This document shows positions 10,148-33,210 of a stretch of DNA of 41,044 nucleotides, piece after piece. Numbering within the stretch: the first letter of the stretch is position 1; every line of letters starts with the position of its first letter. Where the stretch lies: contig CACZTI010000050.1 in assembly GCA_902783985.1 (NCBI GenBank), positions 1 through 41,044 of the forward strand, given 5' to 3'. A model generated the notes under the pieces. The model was not told the origin of the DNA, did not search any database, and worked only from the letters and a program-made list of their open reading frames with translations. This DNA is from an uncultured Erysipelotrichaceae bacterium. GTDB lineage: Bacteria > Bacillota_I > Bacilli_A > RF39 > UBA660. A program made the position numbers and the translations under genes.

Positions 10148-10336
10148 TTTCGTAATTCTCCTTTCATTTTAATTATATATTGAATAAAATATGTAGTCAA
10201 TTGATTTTACTATATATTTAACATAGTTGACATTTAATATTTTATATAGAAATATCTAATAAAAACATGTGTCAAAAATAAAAATTAATTTACTTTGTTT
10301 TCTATTTATGTTATATTATTATTATGGAAGGTAGAT

Positions 10337-10822
10337 ATGAAGAAGAAAATTATTGAAATTGTATTAGTTTTATTTATTATTTTTGAATTTATGGCAACAT
10401 ATTGTTTATTATCATTTGATAATTATAATGTTTTAAATACCAATAACAATTATTATTTAATCTATAATGGTAATGAATTATTTAAGAAAGGATCTCTTAT
10501 CAAATTTAAAAAAATTGATAATTGTGTAAATCTTCAAGAAGGAAAGGAAGTATATTATACTTTAAGTCCTGATGTTGTTTTAAAAGGTGAAGTTTCTAAA
10601 AGAGATGAAAATATGGATAATGATGCCATGATTATCTCAGGTAATTATATTAAATGTGATAGAATGTTAGGTAATGAATTTAAAGAATACAAAAATATTG
10701 GTAGTTTTATTAATTTTATAACTAATAAAAAAGTATATTTCTTTTTAATATTATTACCAACAATTGGTTTATTGGTATATGAAATATTCTTAATAAAAAA
10801 CAATATTAAGAAAGAAAACTAA
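10337..10822 (+). CDS. SipW-shaped membrane protein lacking the catalytic Ser/His (pseudo-signal-peptidase)
   Basis: Start moved to ATG 10337 (GGAAGG RBS). It has an N-terminal TM, a soluble domain of about 110 aa and a C-terminal TM (FFLILLPTIGLLVYEIF), as in SipW. NGNELFKKGSLIKFKK occupies the place of SGSMEP..GSLILVKE, and there is no THR(I/V) motif. Confidence 0.55.
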   Translation: MKKKIIEIVLVLFIIFEFMATYCLLSFDNYNVLNTNNNYYLIYNGNELFKKGSLIKFKKIDNCVNLQEGKEVYYTLSPDVVLKGEVSKRDENMDNDAMIISGNYIKCDRMLGNEFKEYKNIGSFINFITNKKVYFFLILLPTIGLLVYEIFLIKNNIKKEN

Positions 10823-10823
10823 T

Positions 10824-11753
10824 ATGAAAAAGAAATTTAAATTAAATAAAAAAATTGTATTTTTAGGAATAGCAATAGTTCTTTGTTTAATAATGGTTAT
10901 CTTTAATCCTGTAACTATTGCTAGATATGTTTATAATGCTATTAGAAATTATTATTTAGAAACCCAAGATTTTTATTTTAATTGTGATAAGATGTCTCTT
11001 AATAATTCTTTATATCAAATTGATAATTGGGATGGAGTAGAAGATTTTTCTGTTACTTTTAATATGAATAGTATTAAGAATAATTTGGTTGTTTCTAAAA
11101 GTGATATTTCTTATAATTTAAGTTATACATGTTCCAGTAATGTAGTATGTACAGCAAGTAAAAATAATGGTGTTATAGACGCTCAAAGTAATCGTGATTA
11201 TTTTATTATAAATATTCACCCTATTGTTTCATTACAAGAGGGTGATTCCGTATGGTTAAATGTTTCATCAACATCAATTAGTCCCTATGTTCAAACGATT
11301 AGTGGTAGAATTCAATTAAATGTTGGAATTCCTGGTTTAACATATGAAATAATGGATGAAGCGAATAGACCTTATTTAAATTTTTCTCTTACTAATACTT
11401 TTGATTTTTATAAAGTAATAAGGGCTTATGGAAATCATGCAGTAGGGGAAGAAATATCAAGTTCTGCTTATCGTAATTTACCTAGTTCAGAAAAAGAAAA
11501 TTATGCATCTGCTTTGATTACCTTATCATTTGATCCACATGTGGTACTCTTAGATTTGACAAGTGAGTTTTACCAAGATGCCGTATCTCATACTGAAATA
11601 GAAATAGATGGATATCAATATGTTAACAGTATAACTTTTAAAGTTGATCCAATATCCAGTGAAATGATAAGATTTTATAAAAAAAATGCTAGTATGAATT
11701 ATACATACCCATATGGCACTAATACACCAATAATTAGTTTTTCAGCTAGTTAA
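10824..11753 (+). CDS. Exported beta-rich protein of unknown function with a signal-anchor ending in TIARYVYN
   Basis: Basic N-terminus plus TM, and a beta-rich Ser/Asn/Thr composition. The gap to the upstream gene is 1 nt. Confidence 0.6.
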   Translation: MKKKFKLNKKIVFLGIAIVLCLIMVIFNPVTIARYVYNAIRNYYLETQDFYFNCDKMSLNNSLYQIDNWDGVEDFSVTFNMNSIKNNLVVSKSDISYNLSYTCSSNVVCTASKNNGVIDAQSNRDYFIINIHPIVSLQEGDSVWLNVSSTSISPYVQTISGRIQLNVGIPGLTYEIMDEANRPYLNFSLTNTFDFYKVIRAYGNHAVGEEISSSAYRNLPSSEKENYASALITLSFDPHVVLLDLTSEFYQDAVSHTEIEIDGYQYVNSITFKVDPISSEMIRFYKKNASMNYTYPYGTNTPIISFSAS

Positions 11754-11766: not shown

Positions 11767-12756
11767 ATGAGTCGTAATGTTGTAAAAGATTGTTTAGATT
11801 TTGATCGTAAAAATACTATAGAATACCTTAAATTAATATTTAATGGTAAGACTACCAAGGGATTATCTAATCAAATGGTCGATTATTACTTTGATTTAAG
11901 ATATTGTAATATAGAAGACAATAAGAATATCATAAATAATATTATTAATAATGTTAAAAAGAAAACATACGACTACGTAAAGAATGAGAATATTAAAATA
12001 GATAATATTCATGATGAAATAAATAATTCTTTATGGATATTAAAATATATTCTTTGTTTTGAAAAAGCTTTAAACGATAAAAAAATAATGAAACTACTAA
12101 ATGGTTTAGAAGAAAAAGTAAGTAAGAGAAATCAAAAACAAGATGTTTTAAAAGTAAAATTATTTCCAATGATAAAAAATAATTATGAAATAAAAGAGAA
12201 ATTTGTCAAAAAATGTTCTTGTAAAGATTTTGAACTTGATATAAAGAGTACTAATATTTTAAATGTTTTTTATACTACATTAAAAAGTAATGTTAAAATA
12301 CCAGAATTATTTAGTACTTTAGCTGCTAATAAAGTTTATAATAGTGGTACAGTTAATGAAGATAAACTATTGGTTTTATATACTTTAATTAGTATTAAAA
12401 TAATGGAAGATGTAAATAATTTTGATTATGATAAAAAATATGTTATATCATTTGATAGTAATTTACTTAATAAAAAGAATAAATGTAAACAATTGTTTAA
12501 AATATTTGATTTAGATTTTCTAAAAGACCGAATGATTATGGAAATATCATATGATGATTTTATAAATAATAAAGATTTAGTTTATGATCTTATTAGAGAA
12601 GGATATAAATTTGGGGTTATCATAAATGATGAATTTAGTGATAATATTCAGTTATTAGAAGTATTTGAATTTATTTTGTTAAATGGTAAATTAGAGAAGT
12701 TACCTAAATTAAAGAAAATAGATAATGTTATTATAAATGAATTGATTGGAGTATAG
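11767..12756 (+). CDS. Cytoplasmic protein of unknown function; possible degenerate EAL-like fold
   Basis: No TM segments. The C-terminal half shows a pattern like EAL beta strands (YVISFDSNLL ; IMEISYDDFI ; GYKFGVIINDEFSDN ; FEFILLNG) but lacks the catalytic residues. This is a weak call made by eye. Confidence 0.5.
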   Translation: MSRNVVKDCLDFDRKNTIEYLKLIFNGKTTKGLSNQMVDYYFDLRYCNIEDNKNIINNIINNVKKKTYDYVKNENIKIDNIHDEINNSLWILKYILCFEKALNDKKIMKLLNGLEEKVSKRNQKQDVLKVKLFPMIKNNYEIKEKFVKKCSCKDFELDIKSTNILNVFYTTLKSNVKIPELFSTLAANKVYNSGTVNEDKLLVLYTLISIKIMEDVNNFDYDKKYVISFDSNLLNKKNKCKQLFKIFDLDFLKDRMIMEISYDDFINNKDLVYDLIREGYKFGVIINDEFSDNIQLLEVFEFILLNGKLEKLPKLKKIDNVIINELIGV

Positions 12757-12758: not shown

Positions 12759-14279
12759 ATGCAGACTTTTTTTCGATTTTTATTTGAATTTTTAAGACAG
12801 TTTTTTGGTGGCTTTTGGACAATTATTAAAGGTCTATATACTGGAATTATTGAGATTTTTAATGTTGTTGATTATGCAGCGATTGTGTCTTTTTATCGAG
12901 ATGATTTTAATGGTGCTGAATGGATATTTGTTGTTGTTGCTGTTTTAATTCTTTTAGTACTTTTAGGATCAATTGGTTTTTTAATATTTTATTTAGTTCG
13001 TAAATATATTCGTTTTAGAAAAACATTAGTTGAACAAGAATCAATGCTAGAGGAAATTGCAACTTTAAATAAAGATGTTCAAGTGTTAATGAAAGAAAAA
13101 CAAGATATTCTAGCGATGAAAGTATCTCAACTAGGTCTTAAACCTGGAGAGGATGCTGAAGTAGAAGTAAGTGAAAATAATGAAAATCAAAATGCTGATG
13201 GTATTCGTTTTGCTAAACTTAATAATATTGATGAATTAATGGCTAATTATAAAATTCAAAATTATAATAATTCCTTTACTTTAGAAGAATTAGTAGAATT
13301 ATTTCGTAATTTTGCAGCTTCCAAGTTAAAACTTTATTATAAAACCGAAATGATTAGATTATTTATATCATCTCTTGCAAGTACGAAACTTGTTATTTTA
13401 CAAGGTATCTCTGGTACTGGTAAAACATCTCTTGCTTATGCTTGGGGAAAATTTTTAAAGCATGACTCTTGTGTAGCCTCTGTTCAACCATCATGGAGAG
13501 ATCGTACGGAGTTATTTGGATATTTTAATGAATTTACCAAAAAGTTTAATGAAACAGAAGTTTTAAAAGAAATGTATCTTGCTGGATATACAGATGATGT
13601 TTATACCGTTATTCTGGATGAGATGAACATCTCTCGTGTCGAATATTATTTTGCAGAAATGTTATCTATTCTTGAAATGCCTAATAAAGATGAATGGATT
13701 GTTGAACTTGTATCTAGTTCATGGCCCAATGATCCTAAAAAGTTAATTGATGGTAAACTAAAAATACCACCTAATATGTGGTATATTGGAACTATTAATA
13801 ACGATGACTCAACCTTTATGGTTACTGATAAAGTATATGACCGTGCCATGCCAATAGATATCAATGATAAAGGTGAAGTGTTTGAACCAATTGATACTGA
13901 AGCTCAAGATATTAATTATTCATACCTTGATTCATTATTTCAAAAAGGAATGAGTGACCATCCAATGTCTAAAGAGATGCTTGATAAAATAGAAGAAATG
14001 GATAATTATGTTATTCAACATTTCCGTATTGCTTTTGGTAACCGTATTGTTATGCATATGAAAAAGTTTGTTCCAATTTATGTCGCTTGTGGTGGTGAAG
14101 AAATAAATGGCGTTGATTATTTTATCGCTCGTAAGATTCTTCGTAAATTTGAACAGTTAAATGTTTCATATATTCGTGATGAAATAGATGGATTTGTTGA
14201 ATTTTTAGATAAAACATTCGGTAAAGGCAAAATGAAAGAATGTGAGGAATACGTTTTAAGACTTAAAAAATTATCATAA
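12759..14279 (+). CDS. Membrane-anchored McrB-family AAA+ (AAA_5) GTPase-like protein
   Basis: The N-terminus has a hydrophobic segment WIFVVVAVLILLVLLGSIGFLIFYLV followed by RKYIRFRK and a coiled-coil-like stretch. Walker A LQGISGTGKTS. Walker B plus McrB signature VILDEMNISRVEYYFAEMLSILE (compare E. coli McrB IIDEINRANLSKVFGE..MLME). IPPNMWYIGTINNDDS...DKVYDRA (compare VPENVYIIGLMNTADRS...ALRRRF). Confidence 0.8.
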   Translation: MQTFFRFLFEFLRQFFGGFWTIIKGLYTGIIEIFNVVDYAAIVSFYRDDFNGAEWIFVVVAVLILLVLLGSIGFLIFYLVRKYIRFRKTLVEQESMLEEIATLNKDVQVLMKEKQDILAMKVSQLGLKPGEDAEVEVSENNENQNADGIRFAKLNNIDELMANYKIQNYNNSFTLEELVELFRNFAASKLKLYYKTEMIRLFISSLASTKLVILQGISGTGKTSLAYAWGKFLKHDSCVASVQPSWRDRTELFGYFNEFTKKFNETEVLKEMYLAGYTDDVYTVILDEMNISRVEYYFAEMLSILEMPNKDEWIVELVSSSWPNDPKKLIDGKLKIPPNMWYIGTINNDDSTFMVTDKVYDRAMPIDINDKGEVFEPIDTEAQDINYSYLDSLFQKGMSDHPMSKEMLDKIEEMDNYVIQHFRIAFGNRIVMHMKKFVPIYVACGGEEINGVDYFIARKILRKFEQLNVSYIRDEIDGFVEFLDKTFGKGKMKECEEYVLRLKKLS

Positions 14280-14297
14280 TATGGAGGGTGTGATATT

Positions 14298-15461
14298 ATG
14301 CAGGAAGGAAATATCATTGATTTATATCATAGTACAGATAGTAACATTATTAATAAATTTTCTAATAATGTTGATTCTAAAGTTCATGTTAGTCTTGATA
14401 TTGATAGAGTAAACGCTGACTATGAATGGTTAGATATTATCGAAGATACGATAGTTTATATAGATAATATTTTGAGAAATCCTAATCGTTTTATAATTAA
14501 TGAAGAAGATGTTGTTAAAATAGAACTTGCAAGAAGAATAACTGTTGATAGTATTAAACATTTATCAAGAAACACTAACTTAATTCAAGATTATGATAAG
14601 AAAACAGGGGATGTTAAACCATCGAAAATATTAAATATCAATAAAGAAGAAAGTTTTAATACATCTGAAAACCGTTTTATCTATAGTTTAATTGAAAACA
14701 TGTCTTTATTCATAAGTCGTAAAAAACAAAAAATTGTCCTAGCGAATAAAAATAAATGTCAAAAAAAAGTTGAATATAATGCTTTTTCTAAAGTAGGAAG
14801 AGAAAATGTTAATATTAATTTTTCTATTGATAGTTTAATAGATACTAATAGTAATATTATGGAAGATGGATTAAATATTGAAGAAAGAATTAACAAAGTA
14901 GAAATGCGAATAAGAGATCTTAAAAGTTCTGAAGTATACAAAATGATTCATAAATTACATATTACTTTAGTAACATCTCCTATTAAAAAAACCAATGTTA
15001 TTTTAAAAAATGTTAACTTTCAATATGCAGTAAAGTTATGGAATTATTTACAAGAACATTTTGGTGAGGAAACAAATAAAGAGAATAAAGAAAAAAAAGA
15101 TTATGATGATAATGGTAAATTAAAACAATATTATGATGAGAGTTTTTTACTTGACTATTTAGTCCTTAATTCTATTGATGAAAATAATTTTAAAGATTTA
15201 TCTGTATCTAAAGAAGAATTAAAAGAAAGATTAGTTGGTAATATTGTTGAAAAAATAATTGATATTGATAATAAGATATCAGAGGAACAATTAAGTGAAA
15301 TTGTTGCTAAACAATTTGTTGTAATTAAAAATAAATATGTGGCTAGTGATAATAAGATTAAAGAAATATATCATAATGCTATCAATAAATATATGGATAA
15401 AATTATGGATTTAAAATTGGAGGATAATGATGAAGAATTTGAAAGAAAAGATAGAGAATAA
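14298..15461 (+). CDS. McrC/DUF2357-like partner protein (N-terminal region only recognisable), Lys/Glu-rich helical C-terminal half
   Basis: It lies immediately downstream of the McrB-like gene. The motif EESFNTSENRFIYSLIENM resembles the conserved (D)TxENRF element of McrC/DUF2357 proteins. I could not recognise a convincing PD-(D/E)xK nuclease motif by eye. The 3' end overlaps sipW by 35 nt. Confidence 0.5.
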   Translation: MQEGNIIDLYHSTDSNIINKFSNNVDSKVHVSLDIDRVNADYEWLDIIEDTIVYIDNILRNPNRFIINEEDVVKIELARRITVDSIKHLSRNTNLIQDYDKKTGDVKPSKILNINKEESFNTSENRFIYSLIENMSLFISRKKQKIVLANKNKCQKKVEYNAFSKVGRENVNINFSIDSLIDTNSNIMEDGLNIEERINKVEMRIRDLKSSEVYKMIHKLHITLVTSPIKKTNVILKNVNFQYAVKLWNYLQEHFGEETNKENKEKKDYDDNGKLKQYYDESFLLDYLVLNSIDENNFKDLSVSKEELKERLVGNIVEKIIDIDNKISEEQLSEIVAKQFVVIKNKYVASDNKIKEIYHNAINKYMDKIMDLKLEDNDEEFERKDRE

Positions 15462-16002
15462 TAAAGCTTTAAAAATATTGATTAAAGTATTTAAAACGAT
15501 AGCAATGGTAATAGTAATTTGTTTACTTTTAGTTATTGTTGTTCAAAAAGTATCATCTAATAATGTTAATTTAGGAGGATATGGTGTTTATACCGTAGTA
15601 ACTGGAAGTATGGATCCAACATTAAAAGTTAAAGATATGATTTTATCTAAAAAAGTAGATCCAGAAAGTTTAAATACTGGAGATATCGTTGTTTATAATG
15701 GAAATGAAGGTAGTTTTTCTGGTAAAATAGTAACTCATAGAATTATTAAAAAAGAAAAAAGAGATAATGTTTTGTATTTTACAACAAAGGGTGATGCTAA
15801 TCAAATAGAAGATAAAGAAATCACTGCTAGCCAAATAGTTGGTAAGTTTGTTACTAAATTAACAATATTAAGTCTTATAAGTCATATTATTAACAATACC
15901 GTAGGTTTCTTCTTTATTGTTTTTGTTCCCTTTATTATCTTTGTTTTTTGTGAAGTTATAAGTGTTAAGAATGAAATTGATAAAGAAAAAAGTGAGAGTT
16001 GA
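15427..16002 (+). CDS. sipW: Signal peptidase I, archaeal/ER type (SipW-like), copy 1
   Basis: GGAGG RBS. N-terminal TM, TGSMDPTL (catalytic Ser), VTHRII (catalytic His), TKGDAN and a C-terminal TM. This is the architecture and motif set of B. subtilis SipW. Confidence 0.85.
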   Translation: MMKNLKEKIENNKALKILIKVFKTIAMVIVICLLLVIVVQKVSSNNVNLGGYGVYTVVTGSMDPTLKVKDMILSKKVDPESLNTGDIVVYNGNEGSFSGKIVTHRIIKKEKRDNVLYFTTKGDANQIEDKEITASQIVGKFVTKLTILSLISHIINNTVGFFFIVFVPFIIFVFCEVISVKNEIDKEKSES

Positions 16003-16007
16003 TTTTT

Positions 16008-16613
16008 GTGAATAAAAAAGAAATTAAAATTGTCTTAAAAAAACTTAAAAAAACTTTAGGTTTAAAAACACTCTTAATTCTTATTGTTTTGCTTTCATTT
16101 AATACATATGCTTGGTTTGTTTTTTCTAGTCATGTTGATACTGAAATGGGCGCTAAAGTAAGAGCTTGGAATATTACTTTTACCCAGGATGATCAAAGTA
16201 TTATGCAATCATTAACATTTGATATTGATGATATTTATCCAGGAATGAATAATTATCATGATGAAGTTATGATGACTAATAATGGTGATACCAATGCCTT
16301 AGTTAGCTTTGAAATAAATTCTGTAAGAATTCTTGATACTACATATACAGTTTCTGATAGTTTAACTAGTGATGATATCATTGATATGTTAGAAAATGAT
16401 TTCCCTTTTAAAATACAAATTGGTGTTAATCATGATGTTATAGCTCCTTCGGCATCTTCTATTTTTGCAGTAGAAGTTATCTGGAATTTTGAAGAAAATG
16501 AAGATAGTGTAGATACCTTATGGGGAGAAAATGCCTATACTTATAATCATACACATACTGGTATGCCAAGTATTTCCATTAATTTAACAATTCATATTGA
16601 TCAAACGAATTAA
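16008..16613 (+). CDS. TasA/camelysin-like exported protein (about 201 aa)
   Basis: Likely GTG start at 16008, preceded by GTGAGAG. The signal peptide ends in NTYAWFVFSS. The DIYPGM......NNGDT strand motif resembles TasA LKPGDK...ENNGS. C-terminal SISINLTIHIDQ. Confidence 0.65.
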   Translation: MNKKEIKIVLKKLKKTLGLKTLLILIVLLSFNTYAWFVFSSHVDTEMGAKVRAWNITFTQDDQSIMQSLTFDIDDIYPGMNNYHDEVMMTNNGDTNALVSFEINSVRILDTTYTVSDSLTSDDIIDMLENDFPFKIQIGVNHDVIAPSASSIFAVEVIWNFEENEDSVDTLWGENAYTYNHTHTGMPSISINLTIHIDQTN

Positions 16614-16615: not shown

Positions 16616-16641
16616 AAATAAGTACTTTTTAGTACTTATTT
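16616..16641. terminator. Bidirectional terminator between convergent TasA-like genes
   Basis: Stem aaataagtac / gtacttattt, T-rich loop, with A- and T-runs on either side. Confidence 0.7.
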
Positions 16642-17225
16642 TAATTTGCTTTTTGAATGAAATGTAAGTTAACATCCATTTTAGCAGTAGCATTATCACC
16701 AGTTGTATTAGTATCAGCTTCATTATTCATGGTGGAACCTTCACCATCATTCCATGTAACAAATACTCTAACTTGTTTTGTTTTATTAGCATCAGTCTTA
16801 TTTATAGTTCCTGTTATATTACTGTTATTATAATTTATTACCTCACCATTATCTAATGAATAACCAGTTATAACTAAATCAACAACTTGATTACTTGCAT
16901 TTTGATTAAGTGATATTTGATAATCAAATGTTACATCAGTTTCAGTTGCATCAATTATAATGTCAAAATAACCATTAGCTGTAGGGGCAATATAACCATC
17001 ACTTATATTATTATTACCACTAAATACTGGTTGAATAACAGTTTCAGCTGATAAATCATTTCTTACATCAAAATTATTTACAAGAATACGCCATCTTGCT
17101 ATTGACATATTTGATGTAGCATTATTGGAGGTTGAATATTTGGCATATGTTTCTTGCATTGTCAAAATACATAGTAAAATAGATACACAAAATATTAAAA
17201 AGATTATTTTTTTATTATATCTCAT
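16641..17225 (-). CDS. TasA/camelysin-like exported protein (194 aa), paralogue of 32611..33189
   Basis: AGGAGG RBS. The signal peptide ends in QETYAKYSTS. IARWRILVNN and YIAPTANGYFDIIIDATETDVTFDYQI match IAKWQIKVNN and LIAPGVGAYFDIDIDPNNTSVSIRYDI in the locus-2 protein. Confidence 0.7.
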   Translation of the reverse strand: MRYNKKIIFLIFCVSILLCILTMQETYAKYSTSNNATSNMSIARWRILVNNFDVRNDLSAETVIQPVFSGNNNISDGYIAPTANGYFDIIIDATETDVTFDYQISLNQNASNQVVDLVITGYSLDNGEVINYNNSNITGTINKTDANKTKQVRVFVTWNDGEGSTMNNEADTNTTGDNATAKMDVNLHFIQKAN

Positions 17226-17421: not shown

Positions 17422-18201
17422 ATGGCAAAAGAAGGATATGTTGTTTATACAGCGGATAAGATTAAAAATAGAAAGAAAAGAGCTAAAAGATATCGTATTA
17501 TTATTGTAATTTCGATTATTTTCTTAATGAGTTTATTTGTCGTTTTAAGTTTAGCTTATAATGGTGGAAGTTTTACAGTAACACTTGATCCTAACTTTAG
17601 ACTTGAATCAGGTCTTGCTATTTATACGGAAAAAGAAGTACATAAACATGTTCGTAAGTTATATGCGGATGAACTTAAATTTATGGATAATATATCAATT
17701 GATTGGCTACCTAAAAATATTAAAGATTTTTCCGGTGGTGGACATAATGGTGATAATTATATTGCTTATACTTTCTATATTGATAATCAAGGTGTTGAAA
17801 TACAAGATTATTGGTATAAAGTAGTTATTCAAGATGTTATTAAAAATGTTGATGAAGCGATTAGAATTATGATTGTTTTAAATGATACTGAAACAGTTTA
17901 TGCGAAAGCTAATCCCTTAACTGGAGAAGCTGAAAAAGGCACCAAAGCTTTTTATAAAAATGATGTTCCCATACTTGAAAATAGAGCTAAGTTAAAACCT
18001 GGTGAAATCGATAAAATGACCGTAGTTATTTGGCTTGAAGGAGATGATCCTGAATGTGTGGATAATCTTTTAGGTGGCGAAATAAAAATTGGTATGAATA
18101 TTACGGATGAGCATTTTGATGAAGAAACAAGAAACTATATTAACAATAATAAAAATAGTGTTAATGCCGATATTCCAACTATTCCGGATGAGAAAGAATA
18201 G
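17422..18201 (+). CDS. Membrane-anchored or exported protein of the W-[LI]-E-G-[QD]-D family (259 aa)
   Basis: A basic cytoplasmic N-terminus (RKKRAKRYR), then a TM ending in LSLAYNGGSFTV. The C-terminal motif MTVVIWLEGDDPECVDNLLGGEIKIGMNIT is shared with 18210.. and 34611.. Confidence 0.65.
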   Translation: MAKEGYVVYTADKIKNRKKRAKRYRIIIVISIIFLMSLFVVLSLAYNGGSFTVTLDPNFRLESGLAIYTEKEVHKHVRKLYADELKFMDNISIDWLPKNIKDFSGGGHNGDNYIAYTFYIDNQGVEIQDYWYKVVIQDVIKNVDEAIRIMIVLNDTETVYAKANPLTGEAEKGTKAFYKNDVPILENRAKLKPGEIDKMTVVIWLEGDDPECVDNLLGGEIKIGMNITDEHFDEETRNYINNNKNSVNADIPTIPDEKE

Positions 18202-18209: not shown

Positions 18210-19208
18210 ATGAAGGAAGAAAAGAAAAAAAGAAGAAAGTTTTTGTTTTTACTATTATGGTTTTTTATTGTCGGAATATTTCTAGCAACTTCAACATACG
18301 CTTGGTTTTCTACTAATAGAATTACGGATATTGAGTTTGTTGATGTTCATGTTGAAACAGATGGTGGTATTGAAATATCAACTGATGCTTTGGATTGGAA
18401 AAGTGTTTTAAGTGTTAATGATATAGTAGAAGCTTATAAAACATATGGAAATAGTACTAACCAAGTTCCAGCTAATGTCATGCCAATGTCAACTGCAGGA
18501 ATAACGGATAATAATGGATACTTATATATGTTTTATGGTAACTTAGAAAATGTTGCTTCTGGTGAATACATTTTATCTAGTAAAAGACAAGTAGAAACAA
18601 GATGTAGTGGGGAAGATTGTTCAGGAAGTTTTATTTCCTTTGATGTCTTCTTTCGTACTAGTGTTGATCGAAAATTATTTTTAAGTAGTGATTCATTTGT
18701 AACCTATTTAGGTGAAGAAAGTTTAGGTATTGAAAATTCCGCAAGAGTTGCTTTTGTATTGGAAGGTAATGTATCGCAAGATGCGAATATCAATGTCGCT
18801 CAAAATCTAAATGGTGGAAGAAATGATGATGTCTATATTTGGGAACCTAATTATGATGTTCATACAAGAACTGGTGTATCAAATGCCTTATCCACATTTA
18901 ATATCGTAACTACTGAAGAAAATGGAGAAATAATTCCTTATGATGGTGTCATTAATCCCATATTACTTTCTCAAAACATTGATATTAGAAATGCTAATAG
19001 TATAAATTATCCTAATTATTTTAAACCAGTAAATGTTAAAGTTTATACTAAAAGTAACAATGATACTAATCAAGAATTATTTGATATTAAAAGAGGTATT
19101 ACTAAAGTAAAAATATATATGTGGTTAGAAGGACAAGATGTTGATAGTGAAAACAATGCATCTTTTGGTGATATCAGATATAATTTGCAATTTACTTTAA
19201 ATCCATAA
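18210..19208 (+). CDS. Large TasA-like exported protein (332 aa), paralogue of 34611..35837
   Basis: The signal peptide ends in TSTYAWFSTNRITD. The C-terminus VKIYMWLEGQDVDSENNASFGDIRYNLQFTLNP resembles the TasA C-terminus (..NKYQGNSIKLQFSFEATQ). Confidence 0.7.
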   Translation: MKEEKKKRRKFLFLLLWFFIVGIFLATSTYAWFSTNRITDIEFVDVHVETDGGIEISTDALDWKSVLSVNDIVEAYKTYGNSTNQVPANVMPMSTAGITDNNGYLYMFYGNLENVASGEYILSSKRQVETRCSGEDCSGSFISFDVFFRTSVDRKLFLSSDSFVTYLGEESLGIENSARVAFVLEGNVSQDANINVAQNLNGGRNDDVYIWEPNYDVHTRTGVSNALSTFNIVTTEENGEIIPYDGVINPILLSQNIDIRNANSINYPNYFKPVNVKVYTKSNNDTNQELFDIKRGITKVKIYMWLEGQDVDSENNASFGDIRYNLQFTLNP

Positions 19209-19227: not shown

Positions 19228-22200
19228 ATGAAAAAGATTGTTAAAAATAAAAGTTTATTTAATCGTTTAATAGTAATTTTTTTCGTTATTGCTATTATCC
19301 TTTTTTTGTCAATAAATTTATTTAGGACTTTTTCTGAAGATGTCTCTGATACTAGTTCTCATATTACTGGAGACACTGTTTATGTTAATGATTTAGTTAG
19401 TGACTATAATTATTATTTAGGAATGAATTATGTAGGTGATATTGATTCCAACAGTGTTTCATATAGTGATAGTAATCTATCTAGTGTAACAATTGTTTAT
19501 CATGGATATGATAGTAGTGTTAATAATTGTGATGATACTTTATGTGGTTATGTTTCTTTAACAGAAAGACAAAACAAATTTATATATTATAAATATTATC
19601 CCGTTGTTAATAATGAAATGACCATCGAACTTATTGATAATCCATTTAGTGATCGCCCAACTAATAAAGCTTTTGGTGGATGGACTAGTACTGATGGTGT
19701 TATTACAAGAAATAATAATACTAATGTTCAAACAATCAAGGTTGTTAAATCAGGAAATAATCAAGTAGTTAATATTTATGCTAATTGGATAAATGCTCAT
19801 GTTGTTTATTTAAAAGGTAGTTTAGGTGATGATAATTTTGATGGTAGTACAGAAGATGATGCTGTAGCTTCCTGGGGAAGAGCATTCTCTCTTTTAGAAA
19901 GTAATAGTACAAATCCAGATGATCGTGAAAGAAATATCATTGTTTTAACTGGTGATATTGCAATGAGTCCAAATTACTCTCAAACTGTAACTCATACTTA
20001 TGATATAACTGTTAATTATAATGATAAAACAAATTTTGATGATACTCCTCATATTATTGAATATAAGAATGGAAATACACGATATGCCCTAACTGATAAT
20101 AATGGAGTTAGTTATACAACATTATCTTTAAATACCGAACCCCTTGATAATACCAAATGGATAATTAGAGAAGAAAATGGTTCATATACCATTCAAAACT
20201 ATGATACTAATAGATATTTATCGTATAGTGTTAATGGTAGTAATGTCACTTTAAATATGACTAATACTAGTACATTATGGAAATATGATAATAATTTAAG
20301 AAAATTCTATGTACCAATTGATTTATCTTATTATGAATACACTTATAATGATGTAAATAATATTACAAGTGGAGAAGAATATTTAATAACTAGTGGTTCA
20401 GAGAATAATACTTTAAATAGTAATTTAGCTAATATTAGTTTCAATAATCGTAATTTTAATAATAATGCCTTATGGACATTTACTAATGAAAATGGTGGAT
20501 ACTCCATAAAAAATGGTAATAATTATTTATCAAGTGTTGATGGTGGTAATAATGGAGCTGCTCTATATTTTTCAAGTTCTCTGGCAACTTGGCGTTATGA
20601 TGATACCAATCATGCATTTTATAGACAAACATTAATTAATTATGTAACTTATTCCTATAATCATGCTAATTATATTAATAGTGGAAGTAATTATTATATT
20701 ACAAATGGTGATAATAATAACTTAATTGCTTTATCAGTAAATGGTAATAATTTAACTTATTTTGATATGACAGATAATGAACCAACTAATACTAGTTCTT
20801 GGTTATTAAATAATTATAATGGTGGTTATACTATAAGAAATGTAAGTAATAATAGATATTTATATTGTAGTAATAATGGAACTTTATCTACTAATACTAA
20901 TTCAAGAACATGGATGTATGATGCTAATAATCATCGTTTATATTATCAAAGAAATTATAATAATAGATATTATCTTCGATATAACAATGGAACTTGGTCT
21001 ACAACAACTAATGCTAATCAAGCTACAGAATTATATTTTACAACAAGAGTTACTAATAGTAGTTATCAAAATACTAATGTATATTTATCATTTGATAATA
21101 ACAGGTGGGGTTTAGTTGATACTTTAGGGGATAATACGACAATAACTTTAAAAACTGTTGAAAGTAATTATGTTAATAATACAGTTAATTATTATGTAAG
21201 ATATAATAATGGTTTTGAAATAAGTGATATTGATTCTAATAATCGATTAAATTTTGCAACATATACTATTGATAGAGAAATAAGAACTACTAATACTGGT
21301 AATATTGGTACTAATAACTATAATACAAATAATAATAATCTTGCGGTAACTATTACCAGTCTTTATAATCACATTGATTATCGTAATAATGCTTCAATTG
21401 ATTTAACAGATGATGTTAATAATGGATATGATTTTGTATCTGCTTATAATGATTTACAAATGGAATATTTAAGTATTAAAGCGAATGGATTTAATGCAAT
21501 TAGTAATGATACAACCACAACTAATTATAGTGGAACATATGCAGCTTTAGAAGGAAATTACCATAATGTTAGAATAGGAAGAGGAATGAATACTACTTCT
21601 TGGACTAATGATTCCGCATCTATTTTTAGTTTTGCTTATGGTGGAAGTGATAGTACATCTCTTGGAAGTAGTAATAATCACAATAATGACTATCGTTTTG
21701 TTATTGAAACAGGAAGATATTCATCAGTTATGGGTGTTCGTATTGCTAATGATGGAAATTATAGTAATTATAATACAGTTGATTATTATGGCAAAATGAC
21801 CTTTGTTTTAGGTAATGATTATGATCGAGTATCAAATATTCATAATCGTCTTCAAGTATATTATCGTGCAGGTAGTTCTAATAATTATGGTATTGTTGGT
21901 AAAACTAATTCTAATAATCCCGCTTATTTAATTAATGTTAAAAGTGGTAATATAGGATATGATTATTTTAATAATAATCCGAGTGATGATAATAGAGCTT
22001 ACTCTGGACTTTATGTTGGTGGACTAACTGTTAATGCCACGAATTCCACTACTGATATTTCACCAAGAGTTTTAGTAATGGAAGGAGGCTATATCGCCAA
22101 TATTGTTGGTGGTCTTCGTCTTTATGAAAATTATCAAAACACGGTTCCTACAAAGATTTATGTTAAAGGTGGTACTATCTCTAATATTGTAGGAGGTGCC

Positions 22201-25200
22201 GGTGTATCAACAACATATGGTAATCGATATATTTCTGTTACTGGTGGTAGTATTGAATATAGTGTATCTGGTGGTAGTAATGGAGTTTTTGCTACTGATT
22301 CCACAGGACAACAAAGTGGTAAATTACAAGGTAATAGTTATGTTCATATAGGTGGAAATGCAAGTATTGGAACCAATAATTCTGGTGAATTATATGGAGT
22401 TAGTTATGGTTCTGTATTAGGAGCTGGTAATGGTAATAGTGATGTTCCAAATTCTGGTCAAGTTATTAAAACCAATGTTTTCATAAGTGGTGATGCTAAA
22501 ATATATGGAAGTGTCTATGGTGGTGGAAATTATGGTAATGTTACCGATGATGTTCACTTAGATATTTCAGGTGGTACTATTTATGGAAGTGTTTATGGTG
22601 GGGCTAATAAAAATGGTATCGGAAGTGTTACTATTCAAGAAGGAATGGGAGAGACAGTATCCTATGTTAATCATGAAAATATTACATCTGGTAATGGATA
22701 CTTGATTGTTAAAGAAAATGGTTCAACAATGAATGCTTTATCTTTAAATAATAATTCTATTACTAATAGTGTTTTAGGAACAACCACAAGTGCCCCTTTA
22801 AGAAGTTTTTGGACAATTACTAGTCAAGATAATGGTTATACTATTAAGAATGTTAGTAATAATATGTATTTAACACATGAAACAGGTTTAAATAATCCAA
22901 CATTAAAATTAGATACTAATCCAGCGGTATGGCAATATGATACAAGTAATAAATCCTTCTATAAACAAGCAAGTTATTTTAATGATTATACAGTATCTTA
23001 TAACTTTAGTACATCAATGATTACCAATGAAGAAATATTATTAACAAATTCTAATTCTAATACCGCTAATTCAATGGCAATTACTAATAATAATTTATCT
23101 AATATAACTTTAAATAGTACTAGTATTCCGTTGGATAATTTATGGATTATTGAAGAAAATAATGGTGAATATGCTATTAAAAATGTTAATACTGGATTAT
23201 ATTTAAATATGGAATCAAGTGGTTGGTTTAATTATAATTTAACTTTAGGTAATAATCCAACATATTGGCAAAGTGATGGAAGAAACTTCTATTATGGAGC
23301 TTTCTTTAGAACATATTATTTAACATATAATAATGGTTGGACAACAACTACTACGGCATCATCAGGAACTAATTTCTATTTTGGAAAATATAATATTAAT
23401 TACAATGAAATAGAAGATACTTTCTATTTAGGATTTAATAATAACTGGGTATTAACAAGAACTAATACTTCGGTTAATAGTTTAACTTTTAAAACACAGA
23501 ATGTTTCTACAAACTTTGTTCAAACAGCAACCAATAGATTAAATGGTGATGTAACAATCAATATGACAGGAGGAGAGATTAAGAAAACTCTTTATGGTGG
23601 ATCTTGTGAAAAAGGTAATGTTGCAGGTGATGTTATAATCAATATTTTAGGTGGTACTATTAATTATGATGATAATAATCATGGAAGTTTATTTGGTGGT
23701 GGATATGGTGAAGAAACATCTATCGCTGGTAATATAAATGTTTCCATTGAAGATAATAATAAAGTCATGATTAAAGGAGATTCCTATGGTGGAAGTGCTT
23801 TAGGAACAGTAATTGGTAATATTCAATTTGATATTGATGATACTTCAAGTACTCCTACAATTACAATAGATGGTGATACATATTGTGGAAGTATGGGAAA
23901 TAAACTAGATAGTACCTTAGGTAACATTATGGGAAATTGTTCTCTAAATATTAAAGAAGGAGACTTTACTAAAAACTTCTATGGTGGAAATAATTCTGGT
24001 GGTGGAGCCTATGGTAATATCACGGTTACTACTGGTGGATATAATACTGATGCTAAAATAGGTAATGTCTATGGTGGTGGAAATGAAGCTGATTCACTAA
24101 GTAATAATGTTACAGTTTATGTTAAAGATAAATCTAATATAACCAATGTCTTTGGTGGTGGTAATTTAGCTACTGTTTCTAATACCAATGTTTATTTACA
24201 AGGTGGTACTGCTACCAATACCTTTGGTGGTAGTAATAAAAGTGGAGCTGATGTAACCAATGTTTATTTACAAAATGGTAATTTCACTAATATTTATGGT
24301 GGAAGTAATGAATTAGGTGAAGTATTAGCAACTAATATTACTTTAACAGGAGGTAGAGCGACTACTGTTTATGGTGGTAATAATATTGGTGGAACAACAA
24401 CAAATAGTAATGTTTTATTAAATGGATCTAATGTTGATACTATTTATGGTGGAGGAAATGAAGCCCAAACAACAACAACCATTGTTAATATTAATAATGG
24501 TACAGCAAGTAATGTCTATGGTGGTGGTAATAAAGCTTTAACTGATACGACTAATGTTAATTTAAATGGTGGAACAATTACTAATACTTATGGTGGTGGT
24601 AATGAAGCTGGTATTATTACCAAAACCAATGTTAAATTAGCAGGAAGCACTACAACCAACATTTTTGGTGGAAGTAATACAAGTGGTGTTGTACCAATAA
24701 GTAATGTTTTAGTAAACTCTGGAACATCTTCTAATATCTATGGTGGTAACAATGTTGGTGGAAGTACTACAGAATCTTTTGTAACAATGAATGGTGGTAC
24801 TATTAATACTATTTATGGTGGAGGTTTACTTGCAAGTACTGGTAAAACCAATGTTACAATAAATAATTCTTTAACCAATGTTTATGGTGGTGGAGAATCT
24901 GCTAATGTAACAGGTAGTAGTAATATCCAAATGAATAGTGGAACAATAAGTAATATTTATGGTGGAAGTAATACAAGTGGTGTTGTTAATAATAGTAATA
25001 TAACTATTGATGGTGGAACAATAACAACCATTTATGGTGGTAATAATGCTGGTGGAAGTACAACCGTTAGTAACTTAAATATTAATGATGGTACCATTAA
25101 TACTATTTATGGTGGTGGATCAAGAGCAAATCATGGAACATCAAATATTAATTTTAATACAGTATCTAATAATTCGGTATCCGCTATTTATGGTGGTGGT

Positions 25201-28200
25201 ATGGAAGCATCTTGTACTACATCAAATGTAAATTTAATTAAAGGAAAAGCCAATTATGTTTATGGTGGAAGTAATACAAGTGGTGTAGTAACTACAGCAA
25301 ATGTTAATATAACAGGTGGTACATATACAGACATTTATGGTGGAAATAACGCTGGTGGTACAACAACTAATACCTTTATTGATTATCAAAATGCTACAGT
25401 ATCTAATATCTATGGTGGTGGAAATAACGCTGATGTATCAGGAAATACTAGTGTTAAATTAGCAAATGGTACAATATCTAATAATATTTTTGGTGGTGGA
25501 AATAACGCTAAAGTATTAGGAAATACCAATGTTTTAATTAATGGAACTACTATTAATGGTAGTGCTTATGCTGGTGGAAATGGTGCTAGTGCCACAGTGG
25601 TTAAAGATACATATATCTTAGTAGAAGGAAATACTAATATTTTAAATCATGTCTTTGGTGGTGGAAACGCTGCTTATACTGGTATTGTTACCAATAATAA
25701 TTCCAAGGGATCAGTAAATATTATTGGTGGAAGAATAAATGGCAATGTTTATGGTGGTGCTAATACATCAGTTCTATATGGTGATACCACAGTAAATATT
25801 GGTTATAATGCGGTTTTAAATAATAATGCTAATTTAGATTCTAGTACTCTTTCAAAAGGAGATATTTATATTGGTGGAACTGTCTTTGGTGGAGGAGAAG
25901 CTAACGCTAGTGGATCAGAAGACTATGACTACTCATTTATTAGTGTAACAGTTGGTATTATTATAAATATTGATGGAAGTAATCATGATCATTTTGATAT
26001 ATCTGGTTCCATCTTTGGAAGTGGTAACGCTTCAAGTACCACTGGTTATAGTAGAATATATATAAGTAATTATGGTAGTTTAGATGATGTTAAAGAAAAT
26101 ATTTCCATTCAAAGAGCAGATTTAGTTGTTTTAAATAATACTAATATTGAACTATCTGGAGCAACCGATAGAACTAATGAATACTCTAGTGTCTTATTTA
26201 GTGTAAGTCGTATTGATGAGTTAGATTTAGTTAATAATAGTACCATTTATTTCCAAAATGGGGCTAATCTTCTTAAGAAATTTAGAAGTTTAAAAGATAA
26301 TAATACTTTAGCAAGTGTTGTAATTGATGAAGATAATGGTACAGTAGTAAAAAATGTTAATAATCGAATCTATATGTTAGAAGATAAAATCTTAAATATT
26401 GCAACAAATCAAAATATCACATCATATGGTGAAGTAGATGGAATGACTTTCTTAGGAATGTATAAAAAAGAAAGAACAGGAGAAATAGTTGTTGCAATGT
26501 ATGATACTAGTTATAATTATGGTGATCATGCTGATGATAATGATATTTATTATTTCTCTGGAGGAACTTATGTTTTAGGATTACATGAAGATAATCATAA
26601 TATCGAAGTAGATGGTTTCTATTCTAATTTTGCATCAACGGAAGAAGGAGAAGAAAATACATTAGAAGTTAAATATATTGTTCCTACACCAGAAGATTCT
26701 AGTTACTATATGTGGATTATTGGTACATCAGTAACTTCTTATGAAGTAGACCTTGTTGCTTCAAAATATTCAACACTAGGTACTTATGAACTTCCTTTAA
26801 TTGATTATACAACGGCTAATACCTATTTTTCTGTTGTTGGATTCCAATATGAAAATTTAAATAGTGAAGTATCATTAGTATCTCCTAATAGTATTCCAAG
26901 AATTGCAAGTAATTCCAATGATGCTGATAATAAATTAGGATTATCCATAAGACCTGGTACAGAAGGATGGATTACTTTAGGATCAACTGACTTCTTAACT
27001 GAAAGTGAAAATAATATTTCTGGTACCACAACATACTATACAGAAAACTCATCCTTAGCTCCTAGTTTACTATTCTATTTATATCACTCAAAAAATTTAG
27101 CAACCGATGGTAATTTAGGTTATGTAACAATTAAATTACTTGCTATAACTCCAATTAATGATTTGGAAAAAGAAACAACCAGAATTGATATTGTTGTTAA
27201 TTTATCAAGAGCAATATATCAAGGTGATTTCTATGAAGCTGCTATGACACCAGGAAGACAATATGAATTCTTCTCGTCAAGTCCAACAAGAATTACATCA
27301 AAAAGTAGTTTAAGTGCTTATTATGCTTTATATGTAAATTCAGATACTAATATTTATCGTAATGGATATCATCATGCTTTAGTATCAGATAAGTTATTAC
27401 CTGTAAATACTAAAATAACAATGATTGATTTTGCAAGTGGTACAAGTCCTGAATATTATTACTATATTACAAACGCTCAAGATAATATTGATATTATTAA
27501 TAAATATAATTTATATTTAACATATTCCTATGATTTAAGTAAATTTATTAAAATGGGAAGTTCTAGTACAAATAATACTTATGATGAAGAAACATTAAAG
27601 AATATTTATTATAATTCGGAAAACAAAATGGCCGTAGAAGAATTTATCTTTATTGTTGATTTCTGTGATGCTGAAATAGCAAGTAATTATTTAGAAACAT
27701 CATTATTAATGGAAATTAGAACTTCTACAGAACAAACTATTTATTCTGTTTTAGGTACCCAACATGATAGTATGAAATATGATTTATATTATAATTCAGA
27801 TGGTATTATTCATGTAGATGCCGAGTTAAATAATAATGTTATTCATATAGGTAATGATACTACATTAAGAGTAACAACATCTTTTGAACAAAAGAAAGAT
27901 AATAGTAACAATAATATTATTGATACTACATATTATGATAATAAATTAGGTATTAAATTAACGATATATGATGAAAACAATAATCAAGTAAATGGTGTGG
28001 ATTTAATGGGTGTATCATTTGTATATAATGGAATAACTCATTATCCGAGAAGTGATGGTACAGTAAGAATTAATTTAGCAGAGAAAGTCGCTAATGTTTA
28101 TTCAGCTATTGTTATTGATACTAGTGATGGTAACTTATCTGGTGGTAATTATACTTTAAAAGTAGAATCATTCTATTCACCTGATGGTATATATTATGGT

Positions 28201-30042: not shown

Positions 30043-30205
30043 TCCCGCCAGCTGATCCAATCTCACAATCTTGAATCAAGCATTTTCGTTAAGAAAATGT
30101 GCATGAGGACAAAATCTTTTAGATTTTGGTCCGAATAAAGTGCTGAACGAAAGACGAGGCACAAGGGGTCTCTTGGCACTATTATATAAATAGTGCCAAG
30201 AGATA
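29881..30205. other. G+C-rich compositional island spanning the 3' end of the 444-aa gene and about 160 nt downstream
   Basis: My hand counts are 34/60, 30/60 and 35/60 G+C for 29881-30060, against about 25-30% in the flanks. The downstream part carries at least three perfect or near-perfect hairpins. Confidence 0.7.
30169..30203 (+). terminator. 15-bp perfect stem-loop (possible terminator of the 444-aa gene, or part of a structured RNA)
   Basis: tctcttggcactatt-atata-aatagtgccaagaga. The downstream sequence is A/T-rich but is not a clean T-run. Confidence 0.4.
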
Positions 30206-30363
30206 ATAATTATGTTATAAAAAACTAGAGTTCTTTATAAAGGGATATTCTAATTTATGTGGGCTGCTTTTATCTTGAATAAATTAATAAAATACATGTA
30301 AAATATGTATTTTTATTTTGTTTTATGATATAATTTTTTTATAAATACTTGGAAGGTGAAGAT

Positions 30364-30468
30364 ATGAATGATATTTCAAATAGTGATTTATTAGATATAT
30401 ATAAATTAGTAAGTGACTATATAAAAGAATTAACAAAAGATAAAGAAAGTTTTCATGATGGTGAATAG
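30364..30468 (+). CDS. Small ORF (34 aa) whose stop abuts or overlaps the start region of the 519-aa gene
   Basis: GGAAGGTGA RBS 4 nt before ATG 30364. MNDISNSDLLDIYKLVSDYIKELTKDKESFHDGE. Its TAG (30466-30468) lies 1 nt before ATG 30470 of the next ORF. Confidence 0.35.
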   Translation: MNDISNSDLLDIYKLVSDYIKELTKDKESFHDGE

Positions 30469-32014: not shown

Positions 32015-32017
32015 TTA

Positions 32018-32046
32018 TTGCATAAGATTTTTGATTATGTTATACT
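32018..32046 (+). promoter_or_regulatory. Sigma-A-type promoter for the locus-2 sipW operon
   Basis: TTGCAT, a 17-nt spacer, then TATACT preceded by TGt (extended -10). It sits 15 nt upstream of ATG 32062. Confidence 0.6.
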
Positions 32047-32061
32047 TTTAATGGTGATAGT

Positions 32062-32607: not shown

Positions 32608-32610
32608 TTT

Positions 32611-33189: not shown

Positions 33190-33210
33190 AGAATAAAAAG
33201 AGGTGATGAT

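Follow-up and report, generated by a model that had tools for sequence, protein, structure and literature searches.

What is a relative of McrBC, the textbook GTP-driven restriction enzyme, doing among genes for a signal peptidase and secreted proteins? The question is raised by a contig of an uncultured Erysipelotrichaceae bacterium (GTDB lineage Bacilli_A; RF39; UBA660; GenBank assembly GCA_902783985.1, contig CACZTI010000050.1), of which positions 1 to 41,044 were analyzed; this whole stretch of 41,044 nucleotides (nt), with a G+C content of about 26%, is referred to as the window. Three adjacent genes are the subject here. They encode a 506-amino-acid (aa) GTPase (B), a 387-aa McrC-like partner (C) and a signal peptidase of the SipW type (SipW). 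The B-C pair is probably a CoCoPALM-type module, that is, a McrBC pair minus DNA recognition and nuclease that has been taken over by a surface-fiber biogenesis operon. A GTPase ring and its activator that lack both functions and are fixed in a fiber operon would be a clear case of a defense motor recruited for cell-surface biogenesis.

12759..14279, forward strand: B, 506 aa, predicted membrane-anchored McrB-type GTPase of the NxD branch (PDB matches, motifs)
14298..15461, forward strand: C, 387 aa, predicted McrC-like partner (DUF2357 match)
15427..16002, forward strand: SipW-type (archaeal/endoplasmic reticulum (ER)-type) signal peptidase I, 191 aa (TIGR02228)

The three genes were found at these coordinates in the open reading frame list of the window. 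From position 10822 on, successive genes are separated by gaps of 1, 13, 2 and 18 nt. The last 35 nt of C are shared with the start of the SipW gene, and the next gene, for a 204-aa protein, begins 4 nt before SipW ends. Shine-Dalgarno boxes (GGAG or GGAGG) precede B, C and SipW and, together with the 35-nt and 4-nt overlaps, fit co-translation. The reading frames, motif positions, gaps and 35-nt overlap listed in the first-pass annotation of this DNA were all recovered as described, from the open reading frame list and a motif scan. A promoter and terminator scan was uninformative in DNA of 26% G+C, with 84 promoter-like sites against 87 expected in shuffled sequence.

Judged by its sequence, B belongs to the NxD branch of the McrB-type GTPases, and where a DNA-reader domain would be expected it has a membrane anchor. 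A phmmer search of B against all Protein Data Bank (PDB) chains returned E. coli McrB as its sole match (6ut6, E 3.3e-4). A 38-sequence profile of B, built from homologues down to 28% identity, likewise matched McrB only among the nucleoside triphosphatases (NTPases) of the PDB (6hz4, E 2.4e-5). The match of Pfam AAA_5 is weak and below cutoff (E 0.075), and the match of the PADLOC model PDC-M26A (E 1e-32) is confined to the GTPase half (residues 177-314 against profile positions 301-438 of 724). The four motifs GISGTGKTS, DEMNISRVEYYFAEMLSILE, PPNMWYIGTINNDDS and DKVYDRA begin at residues 216, 287, 337 and 357, respectively. The elements of B, all on the forward strand, are as follows.

12759..12869, forward strand: conserved hydrophobic/amphipathic N-terminal segment, residues 1-37; pattern kept in homologues down to 34% identity
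12921..12998, forward strand: predicted transmembrane helix, residues 55-80; peak 3.17 of the Kyte-Doolittle 19-residue mean
12999..13133, forward strand: charged helical linker (stalk) ending LGLKPGE, residues 81-125; read from the sequence
13404..13430, forward strand: Walker A GISGTGKTS, residues 216-224; G216, G219, G221 and K222 invariant in the 38 homologues
13605..13622, forward strand: Walker B TVILDE, residues 283-288; D287 invariant, E288 nearly so; aligns with the McrB Walker B
13797..13808, forward strand: NxD signature N347-N-D349-D350, a shortened variant of McrB NxxD; N347 and D349 invariant

Across homologues the signature reads N-[NKSHRV]-D-[DEQ]-S-T, with N, K, S, H, R or V at position 348 and D, E or Q at position 350. 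R362 and R429 are also invariant in the 38-sequence set. A major McrB branch whose signature has lost one residue, NxD in place of NxxD, and as a rule has E or another D after it, was described by Bell, Makarova, Wolf and Koonin (eLife 2024; PMC11090510).

The N-terminus of B had been proposed to be a membrane segment followed by a positively charged stretch, and the hydropathy profile agrees. The Kyte-Doolittle 19-residue mean exceeds 1.6 only for windows centered on residues 57-75, and the sequence RKYIRFRK stands directly after the helix. By the positive-inside rule, RKYIRFRK would place the stalk and the GTPase domain in the cytoplasm. Residues 1-37 fall below the transmembrane threshold of the same scan and are possibly a first membrane helix or an in-plane helix. 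The coiled-coil-like linker proposed for residues 81-125 is plausible as a helical stalk, but its coiled-coil character did not rise above shuffled sequence in a crude heptad heuristic of our own. The LGLKPGE at the end of the stalk resembles the C-terminal motif of FtsB/DivIC. The Pfam DivIC/FtsB family did not match the N-terminus of B even at E<=10, and hhalign against E. coli FtsB gave a weak local match (E 0.037, 1.4% probability, 24 columns). Just upstream of the GTPase domain lies an RFxxLxxID motif (residues 150-158, 13206-13232) in which F151, L154 and D158 are invariant in the 38 homologues, the CoCoNuT-type proteins with long coiled coils among them.

The partner protein carries the McrC N-terminal domain, DUF2357 (PF09823), at E 1.5e-11 (44.5 bits against a cutoff of 23.3 bits), and PF09823 is annotated on 120 of 120 C homologues among the matches listed. 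The homology to McrB and McrC that had been claimed for the pair is borne out by this match and by that of the B profile to 6hz4.

14421..14768, forward strand: DUF2357 domain, C residues 42-157, the most conserved part of C (Pfam)
15117..15458, forward strand: all-helical, Lys/Glu-rich tail, C residues 274-387 (secondary structure of the AlphaFold2 model)

The invariant runs of C, for instance NILRNPNRF and NTNLIQD, fall between residues 54 and 134 (14457-14699), and the ENRF element begins at residue 124. The same stretch has the lowest confidence in the AlphaFold2 model, with a predicted local distance difference test score (pLDDT) of 45-55 against 69 for the model of C. This combination would suit a segment that needs the B ring in order to fold. 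Beyond it, the model contains a long beta-hairpin (149-186) and, after it, a single beta-strand (260-271) and is all-helical from residue 274 on, where the tail forms several helices of about 20 residues. The crude heptad heuristic reached just the 95% shuffle level in C, at residues 177-211.

Every search for a nuclease in C came back empty. PD-(D/E)xK, PF04411 and PF10117 were not matched, even at E<=10 on the C-terminal half, and no D...(D/E)xK pattern was seen among the invariant columns of C. The PDB profile search with C gave nothing, and Foldseek of the model against the PDB returned nothing at E<1e-3; what it did list, for example TolC and capping protein, were spurious alignments of helices or beta-hairpins. 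C had no PADLOC match and does not match the partner model of PDC-M26; with a partial match of B and none of C, the pair falls outside the PDC-M26 definition. From sequence and model, C appears to be a McrC-like protein with no detectable nuclease domain, a state read as absence rather than mutation. The Lys/Glu-rich, helical and seemingly nuclease-free tail noted at first pass is what Pfam, the PDB profile and the AlphaFold2/Foldseek comparison also found.

Directly downstream, SipW matches TIGR02228 at E 2.3e-25, above cutoff, and Ser61 and His104 do not vary among 78 of its orthologues. It is predicted to be an active-type signal peptidase with intact catalytic residues. The packing of the pair into one operon with a SipW-type peptidase and secreted proteins had been noted at first pass, and the TIGR02228 match upholds it.

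These properties have a counterpart in the literature. The survey cited above named a large clade, CoCoPALM, in which an NxD GTPase is fused to an FtsB-like transmembrane and coiled-coil domain. The clade is associated with genes of the signal peptidase family and was linked to pilus assembly, and coiled coils are usually found on both the McrB and the McrC homologues (PMC11090510). Because the NxD motif, the overall architecture and the peptidase linkage fit, the locus is filed here as a CoCoPALM member; the arrangement is real, and its kind was already named in 2024. The earlier verdict that the pair fits no known system is thus superseded.

How firmly the pair belongs to its surroundings can be judged from related genomes. 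In a scan of one genome per species, 170 genomes encode a B relative, and synteny was taken from the best 80 of these 170, whose B proteins are 72-98% identical over the full length. The carriers are metagenome-assembled genomes of uncultured low-GC gut ‘Bacilli’, ‘Tenericutes’ and ‘Mollicutes’, together with CAG:914, CAG:628, CAG:609, CAG:451, CAG:567 and CAG:884; two of the 80 consist of one contig each, about 1.256 Mb long. CAG-914 is placed by GTDB in Bacilli_A; RF39; UBA660, which makes at least some of the carriers RF39. Counts and median identities below were obtained by searching the 80 loci with every protein of the window in tblastn; they are preceded by the remaining genes of the block.

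10824..11753, forward strand: 309-aa protein with an N-terminal membrane/signal segment, first gene of the invariant core (synteny)
11767..12756, forward strand: 329-aa protein, taken as cytoplasmic, invariant core (translation and orthologue alignment)
15999..16613, forward strand: 204-aa secreted protein with SipW-type signal NTYAWF, last gene of the invariant core (synteny, hhalign)

309 aa: 73/80 loci, upstream of B, median identity 42%
329 aa: 74/80 loci, median identity 29%
B: 80/80 loci, median identity 76%
C: 80/80 loci, downstream of B, median identity 52%
SipW: 79/80 loci, directly downstream of C, median identity 44%
204 aa: 77/80 loci, median identity 35%

In 79 of the 80 loci B, C and SipW lie side by side and collinear, and the order 309aa-329aa-B-C-SipW-204aa is kept throughout the 80 species genomes wherever the contig reaches. 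The outer genes, by comparison, change sides. Those for the 194-aa, 332-aa and giant proteins described below lie downstream of the block in most genomes and upstream in others, homologues of the giant protein flank the cluster on one or the other side in 51 of the 80 loci, and the 259-aa gene was counted in 51 of 80, a figure limited by flank length. In conservation B stands far ahead of the rest of the cluster, with a median of 76% against 29-54% for every neighbor. The 329-aa protein evolves fast. Chance adjacency of the B-C pair with SipW was rejected on the synteny of the 80 loci. The fixed block order and the conservation of B form the pattern of a vertically inherited core operon and not of an inserted defense cassette.

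The linkage reaches beyond these close relatives. An exhaustive search of cluster representatives returned 8354 B relatives, 762 of them at E<1e-30, and the contexts of distant lineages were read from loci sampled among them (percentages are identities to B).

P0247 (44%), L088/L089: six or seven paralogues of the 332/259/204-aa proteins, SipW-like, B, long C-like gene
P0242 (49%), L090: 332-like, SipW-like, B, EAL-domain protein, C-like
P0251 (42%), L093: 259/332-like, SipW-like, B, C-like
P0265 (34%), L083: 259-like, 332-like, B, SipW-like
P0274 (38%), L092: B, C-like, then a weak match to the dead-SipW family
P0254 (40%), L091: 329-like, B, C-like, beside a phage holin gene
P0354 and P0366 (multiple transmembrane segments), L085 and L086: partner gene among housekeeping genes, without SipW nearby
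P0283 (long coiled coil, no transmembrane segment; 42% in the GTPase domain), L081/L082: CoCoNuT-type operon with UPF1-like helicase, VWA, kinase and PP2C

The SipW linkage of B survives the shuffling of gene order across deep divergence, with B 34-49% identical. The co-occurrence of SipW with B homologues that had been proposed as a check was seen in the 79 of 80 close loci and again in L083, L088, L090 and L093. Full-length B was not found in 50,697 phage and 72,556 plasmid records, where the GTPase domain alone matches, at no more than 38% identity.

Several of the distant loci have peculiarities of their own. In L091 a homologue of the 329-aa protein stands directly upstream of B (E 9.5e-11), and this 329-like/B/C-like triad (L091:2686-5777) lies directly downstream of phage holin and DUF859 genes, at what may be a prophage border. 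A 325-aa EAL-domain protein, of the cyclic-di-GMP phosphodiesterase family, is inserted between B and the C-like gene of L090 (L090:3396-4373) and hints at cyclic-di-GMP input. The 329-aa protein of the window occupies a comparable slot but has no EAL homology detectable by hhalign. L085 encodes an 841-aa B homologue with multiple transmembrane segments and a 1158-aa weakly C-like partner near gatCAB (L085:8001-14009), and L086 a 570-aa B homologue, also with multiple transmembrane segments, and a 376-aa partner near clpXP and tig (L086:213-3072); no signal peptidase gene is nearby in either.

The genes around the block encode a second SipW-like protein and a set of small secreted proteins.

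10295..10822, forward strand: 175-aa membrane protein, apparent dead SipW paralogue (pseudo-peptidase) (hhalign against the SipW family)
16641..17225, reverse strand: 194-aa secreted beta-sandwich protein, signal ETYAKY, candidate fiber subunit (AlphaFold2 model)
17422..18201, forward strand: 259-aa membrane-anchored or secreted protein (hhalign with the 332-aa family)
18210..19208, forward strand: 332-aa secreted protein, SipW-type signal STYAWF, conserved WxEGQDxDxE motif (TIGR04088)
19228..28644, forward strand: 3138-aa giant surface protein, N-terminal anchor, Gly/Asn-rich repeats, putative adhesin (open reading frame)
28708..35837, forward strand: second, paralogous fiber cluster (hmmsearch with hidden Markov models of orthologues)

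The 175-aa protein aligns with the SipW family at 98.3% hhalign probability (E 2.5e-14), and the NCBIfam SipW model matches it weakly (E 0.003). In 37 of its orthologues, the catalytic Ser and His columns hold mostly a gap or E, G, A or other residues, and the protein looks like a SipW pseudo-peptidase. A 181-aa protein at 32062-32607, in the second cluster, belongs to the same family (E 6.7e-49), its catalytic positions having been read by eye. Both paralogues, at 10295-10822 and 32062-32607, retain the two terminal membrane segments. An intact SipW together with a dead paralogue recalls the streptococcal SipA (PMC2797073).

The secreted neighbors share a motif, (S/E/N)TYA(W/K)(F/Y), conserved after a hydrophobic N-terminal segment. 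Its ending, T-Y/F-A-W/Y/K-F/Y, resembles that of the SipW-cognate class of signals. In the family of the 332-aa protein A31, W32 and F33 are invariant, and TIGR04088, the model of the SipW-dependent signal peptide, is the commonest NCBIfam match, yet it reaches only 4 of 24 orthologues (best E 0.0019). The proteins are also related among themselves. The 204-aa and 194-aa proteins are full-length paralogues (hhalign 91.6% probability), with which the 309-, 259- and 332-aa proteins have N- or C-terminal segments in common; the 259-aa and 332-aa proteins share a C-terminal motif (84.5% probability over the C-terminal 35 columns), and the 309-aa protein, which has no Pfam or NCBIfam match, shows distant kinship to the 194-aa family (73%). 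The AlphaFold2 model of the 194-aa protein (pLDDT 70.6, shallow alignment) is all-beta after the signal helix and forms a beta-sandwich. A set of secreted beta-sandwich proteins, putatively SipW-dependent, is supported by these data, and such proteins would form a fiber. Of the TasA-like substrates first suggested, the SipW-type signal peptides are likely, whereas homology to TasA or camelysin was detected neither by sequence nor by fold.

The 329-aa protein differs from these. No hydrophobic segment or signal-like N-terminus was seen by eye in its translation and orthologue alignment, and no domain was found by Pfam on 24 orthologues or by PDB profile search. A degenerate EAL domain was considered for it, on the look of its sequence and because of the EAL protein in a similar slot of L090, and rejected, as Pfam on the 24 orthologues, the PDB profile and hhalign to the EAL protein of L090 were all empty.

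The giant protein matches no Pfam family above cutoff, with only a weak Fascin-like match (E 0.0049); its long runs of (G)GxN/GGS-type repeats are suggestive of a beta-helix. The second cluster encodes a 444-aa secreted protein (signal GGTTYAFFNY), a 519-aa protein of no obvious hydrophobic segment, the 181-aa dead SipW paralogue and a 192-aa paralogue of the 194-aa protein (E 4.5e-41). It continues with a 246-aa active SipW paralogue with a Lys/Glu-rich tail (E 4.4e-18), another secreted protein of 194 aa and a paralogue of the 332-aa protein that is 419 aa long (E 5.1e-93). The whole fiber/adhesin region spans 10295-35837 and lies between rplM/rpsI and deoC/tyrS. Upstream of the cluster, a 992-aa protein at 3120-6098 carries BspA-type leucine-rich repeats (LRR_5, E 7.7e-82) and is a putative surface adhesin.

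A CoCoPALM-type module in this setting could work as follows. B would be held in the membrane by its N-terminal hydrophobic segments, with the NxD-type GTPase domain facing the cytoplasm, and by analogy with McrB would form a hexameric ring. As McrC does, C would insert its DUF2357 domain into this ring and stimulate GTP hydrolysis. The GTP cycle would pull no DNA; it would instead be passed through the helical stalks and membrane helices to co-encoded membrane partners. These partners may be the active SipW, its dead paralogue and the pre-proteins tethered by their SipW-type signal peptides, to which B and C would be physically coupled. The outcome would be to gate or drive the cleavage, release and polymerization of fiber subunits and the display of the giant adhesin. 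The fixed gene order, the conservation of B and its absence from the phage and plasmid collections argue for such a role in fiber assembly and against a defense module lodged in the locus. Between the two functions put forward at first pass, linkage and conservation favor the motor for export or fiber assembly.

A stronger version is offered tentatively. B and C may power, and not merely regulate, the extraction and polymerization of SipW-processed subunits in an NTP-driven fiber pathway that would be the main attachment apparatus of RF39. If true, Gram-positive or wall-less bacteria would possess a route of pilus or fiber biogenesis that had gone unrecognized; the apparatus would account for about 2% of a 1.25-Mb genome.

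Several points weigh against a fiber-assembly motor. Assembly of known TasA fibers takes place extracellularly, by donor-strand exchange and with no NTPase devoted to it, and the need for a motor is for that reason not evident. No kinship of the secreted proteins with TasA or with pilins was found. Foldseek with the 194-aa model gave nothing at E<1e-3 and generic beta-sandwiches at E>=6.5e-3, with TasA outside the top 50, FimG at E 0.028 and the archaeal bundling pilin AbpA (7ueg) at E 0.11. Profiles of the 194-aa and 332-aa families matched nothing in the PDB, and Pfam Peptidase_M73 was found neither in the 204-, 194-, 259- and 332-aa proteins nor in 24 orthologues of the 332-aa protein. The second cluster, a set of SipW and pilin-like genes in the same window (28708-35837), has neither B nor C, and the B family has membrane-anchored forms outside any SipW context (L085, L086). 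The closest non-membrane relatives of the GTPase, at 42% identity, occur in CoCoNuT defense-type operons, and PADLOC lists a related GTPase as a defense candidate. The coiled coils are short here and statistically unconfirmed, and homology to FtsB is absent in Pfam and at most weak in hhalign, two points on which the locus does not clearly follow the CoCoPALM description. That description itself occupies one paragraph without experiments, its analysis deferred to a future paper (PMC11090510), and our literature search found no follow-up paper on CoCoPALM.

Some of the same observations bear on the idea that B and C act as a GTP-dependent regulator or quality-control device. As a membrane switch or unfoldase, the pair would control the access of SipW to its substrates or clear uncleaved or jammed signal-anchored precursors, and the fast-evolving 329-aa protein could act as sensor or adaptor. 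This reading is unlikely; it draws on the same linkage data as the fiber-assembly motor. A cluster without B and C is more easily explained by a shared regulator than by a dedicated motor, and polymerization of TasA-type fibers is established to need none. The 329-like protein adjoins B in L091 too, and the EAL-domain protein between B and the C-like gene of L090 hints at a regulatory input, but the family of the 329-aa protein is without a detectable EAL or other sensor domain. Sequence cannot separate a regulator from a motor, and regulation would in part be a refinement of the fiber-assembly role.

Equally improbable is a membrane-associated defense system, a CoCoNuT-like type IV restriction or abortive-infection derivative in which B and C would detect foreign nucleic acid or an attacking phage at the membrane, possibly with the fiber as phage receptor, and trigger an effector. 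The family does descend from McrBC restriction systems, the 42% identical soluble relatives sit among a UPF1-like helicase, VWA, kinase and PP2C genes, PDC-M26A matches the GTPase, and L091 adjoins a phage holin gene. Against this, Pfam and NCBIfam scans found no nuclease or recognizable effector in C or in the other nine cluster proteins. The PADLOC scan, which took in the 309-aa and 329-aa proteins, B and C only, gave no match for the first two and none between C and the partner model. Defense genes are typically patchy and fast-evolving, whereas here the block keeps one gene order in 80 of 80 species genomes, and no gene of the cluster evolves more slowly than B. No full-length B turned up in the phage and plasmid collections, and in distant lineages SipW and secreted proteins are again linked to it even though the gene order is shuffled. 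The lodged defense module suggested at first pass does not accord with this distribution, nor does an inserted type IV restriction variant, for which an intact nuclease in C and a patchy or mobile distribution were both looked for in vain.

Least probable by far is a divisome or envelope role with the fiber genes as mere neighbors, for although the N-terminal module was called FtsB-like (PMC11090510), the stalk end and its weak FtsB alignment (E 0.037) have been noted above and B is conserved at core-gene level, Pfam DivIC/FtsB is not matched, the FtsB coiled coil is extracytoplasmic whereas the charge bias puts the stalk and GTPase of B inside, Pfam and NCBIfam scans of the window proteins revealed no division genes nearby, and the SipW/secreted-protein linkage persists through rearrangements in several lineages.

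The fiber-assembly role of a CoCoPALM-type module would have consequences for the biology of its carriers. RF39 are abundant, uncultured, small-genome gut bacteria, and at least some of the examined genomes belong to them. The module lies at the center of a cluster of about 25 kb with the 3138-aa adhesin and probably bears on attachment to hosts or partner cells. The locus also offers a compact, well-conserved CoCoPALM exemplar with a defined parts list.

Set beside known systems, the locus resembles the type IV pilus and archaellum (PilB/ArlI, PilC, PilD) in logic only: a cytoplasmic, presumably hexameric NTPase at the membrane, a dedicated peptidase for a special class of signals and several pilin-like substrates in one locus. 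There is no homology. The NTPase of this locus is an AAA+ protein of the McrB type and not a secretion ATPase of the PilB type, the peptidase is a serine enzyme of the SipW type and not an aspartyl one of the PilD type, and the substrates would carry C-terminally cleaved SipW-type signals and not class III signals. With streptococcal SipA/LepA the locus shares a catalytically dead signal peptidase I homologue in a fiber cluster, here the 175-aa and 181-aa proteins. SipA is an inactive signal-peptidase-like protein that is essential for pilus polymerization and was proposed to be a chaperone (PMC2797073). The streptococcal pili, however, are sortase-polymerized LPXTG proteins; no sortase or LPXTG was seen here, and the paralogues are of the SipW Ser/His type and not Ser/Lys.

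The Bacillus tapA-sipW-tasA operon and the archaeal AbpA system are closer in composition, with an archaeal/ER-type peptidase, Ser and His intact, among small secreted beta-rich proteins. Sequence or fold homology to TasA/camelysin was not detected, AbpA (7ueg) reaching E 0.11, and the Bacillus operon has no NTPase, McrC-like protein, dead SipW paralogue or giant adhesin.

Canonical McrBC (E. coli; 6ut6, 6hz4, 7vsr) shares with the pair the AAA+ GTPase fold family, the Walker A and B motifs and the Asn/Asp signature, and a partner with the McrC N-terminal (DUF2357-type) domain is encoded immediately downstream. B differs in its membrane anchor, in having no N-terminal DNA-binding domain and in NxD replacing NxxD. 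No PD-(D/E)xK nuclease was found in C, and the pair is neither mobile nor patchy but embedded in a secretion/fiber operon. CoCoNuT (CnuB/CnuC) belongs to the same NxD branch, and a coiled-coil homologue of 756 aa shares 42% identity with B over the GTPase domain; McrC homologues of CoCoNuT systems also often lack an active nuclease (PMC11090510). In the CoCoNuT GTPases the coiled coils run to several hundred residues and a membrane helix is missing, whereas B is without a long coiled coil. These GTPases also never occur without HEPN or other nucleases, helicases and genes of that sort, none of which is present in this cluster.

The closest likeness is to CoCoPALM: an NxD-variant GTPase whose DNA reader is replaced by an N-terminal membrane helix and helical stalk, and a DUF2357 McrC homologue without detected nuclease that directly adjoins a signal peptidase gene. 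To this architecture the present member adds a six-gene invariant core, an active and a dead SipW, the 329-aa protein, the giant adhesin and a cluster without B and C. It also adds the core-gene-like conservation of B over 80 species genomes and a SipW link that recurs in lineages whose B is 34-49% identical.

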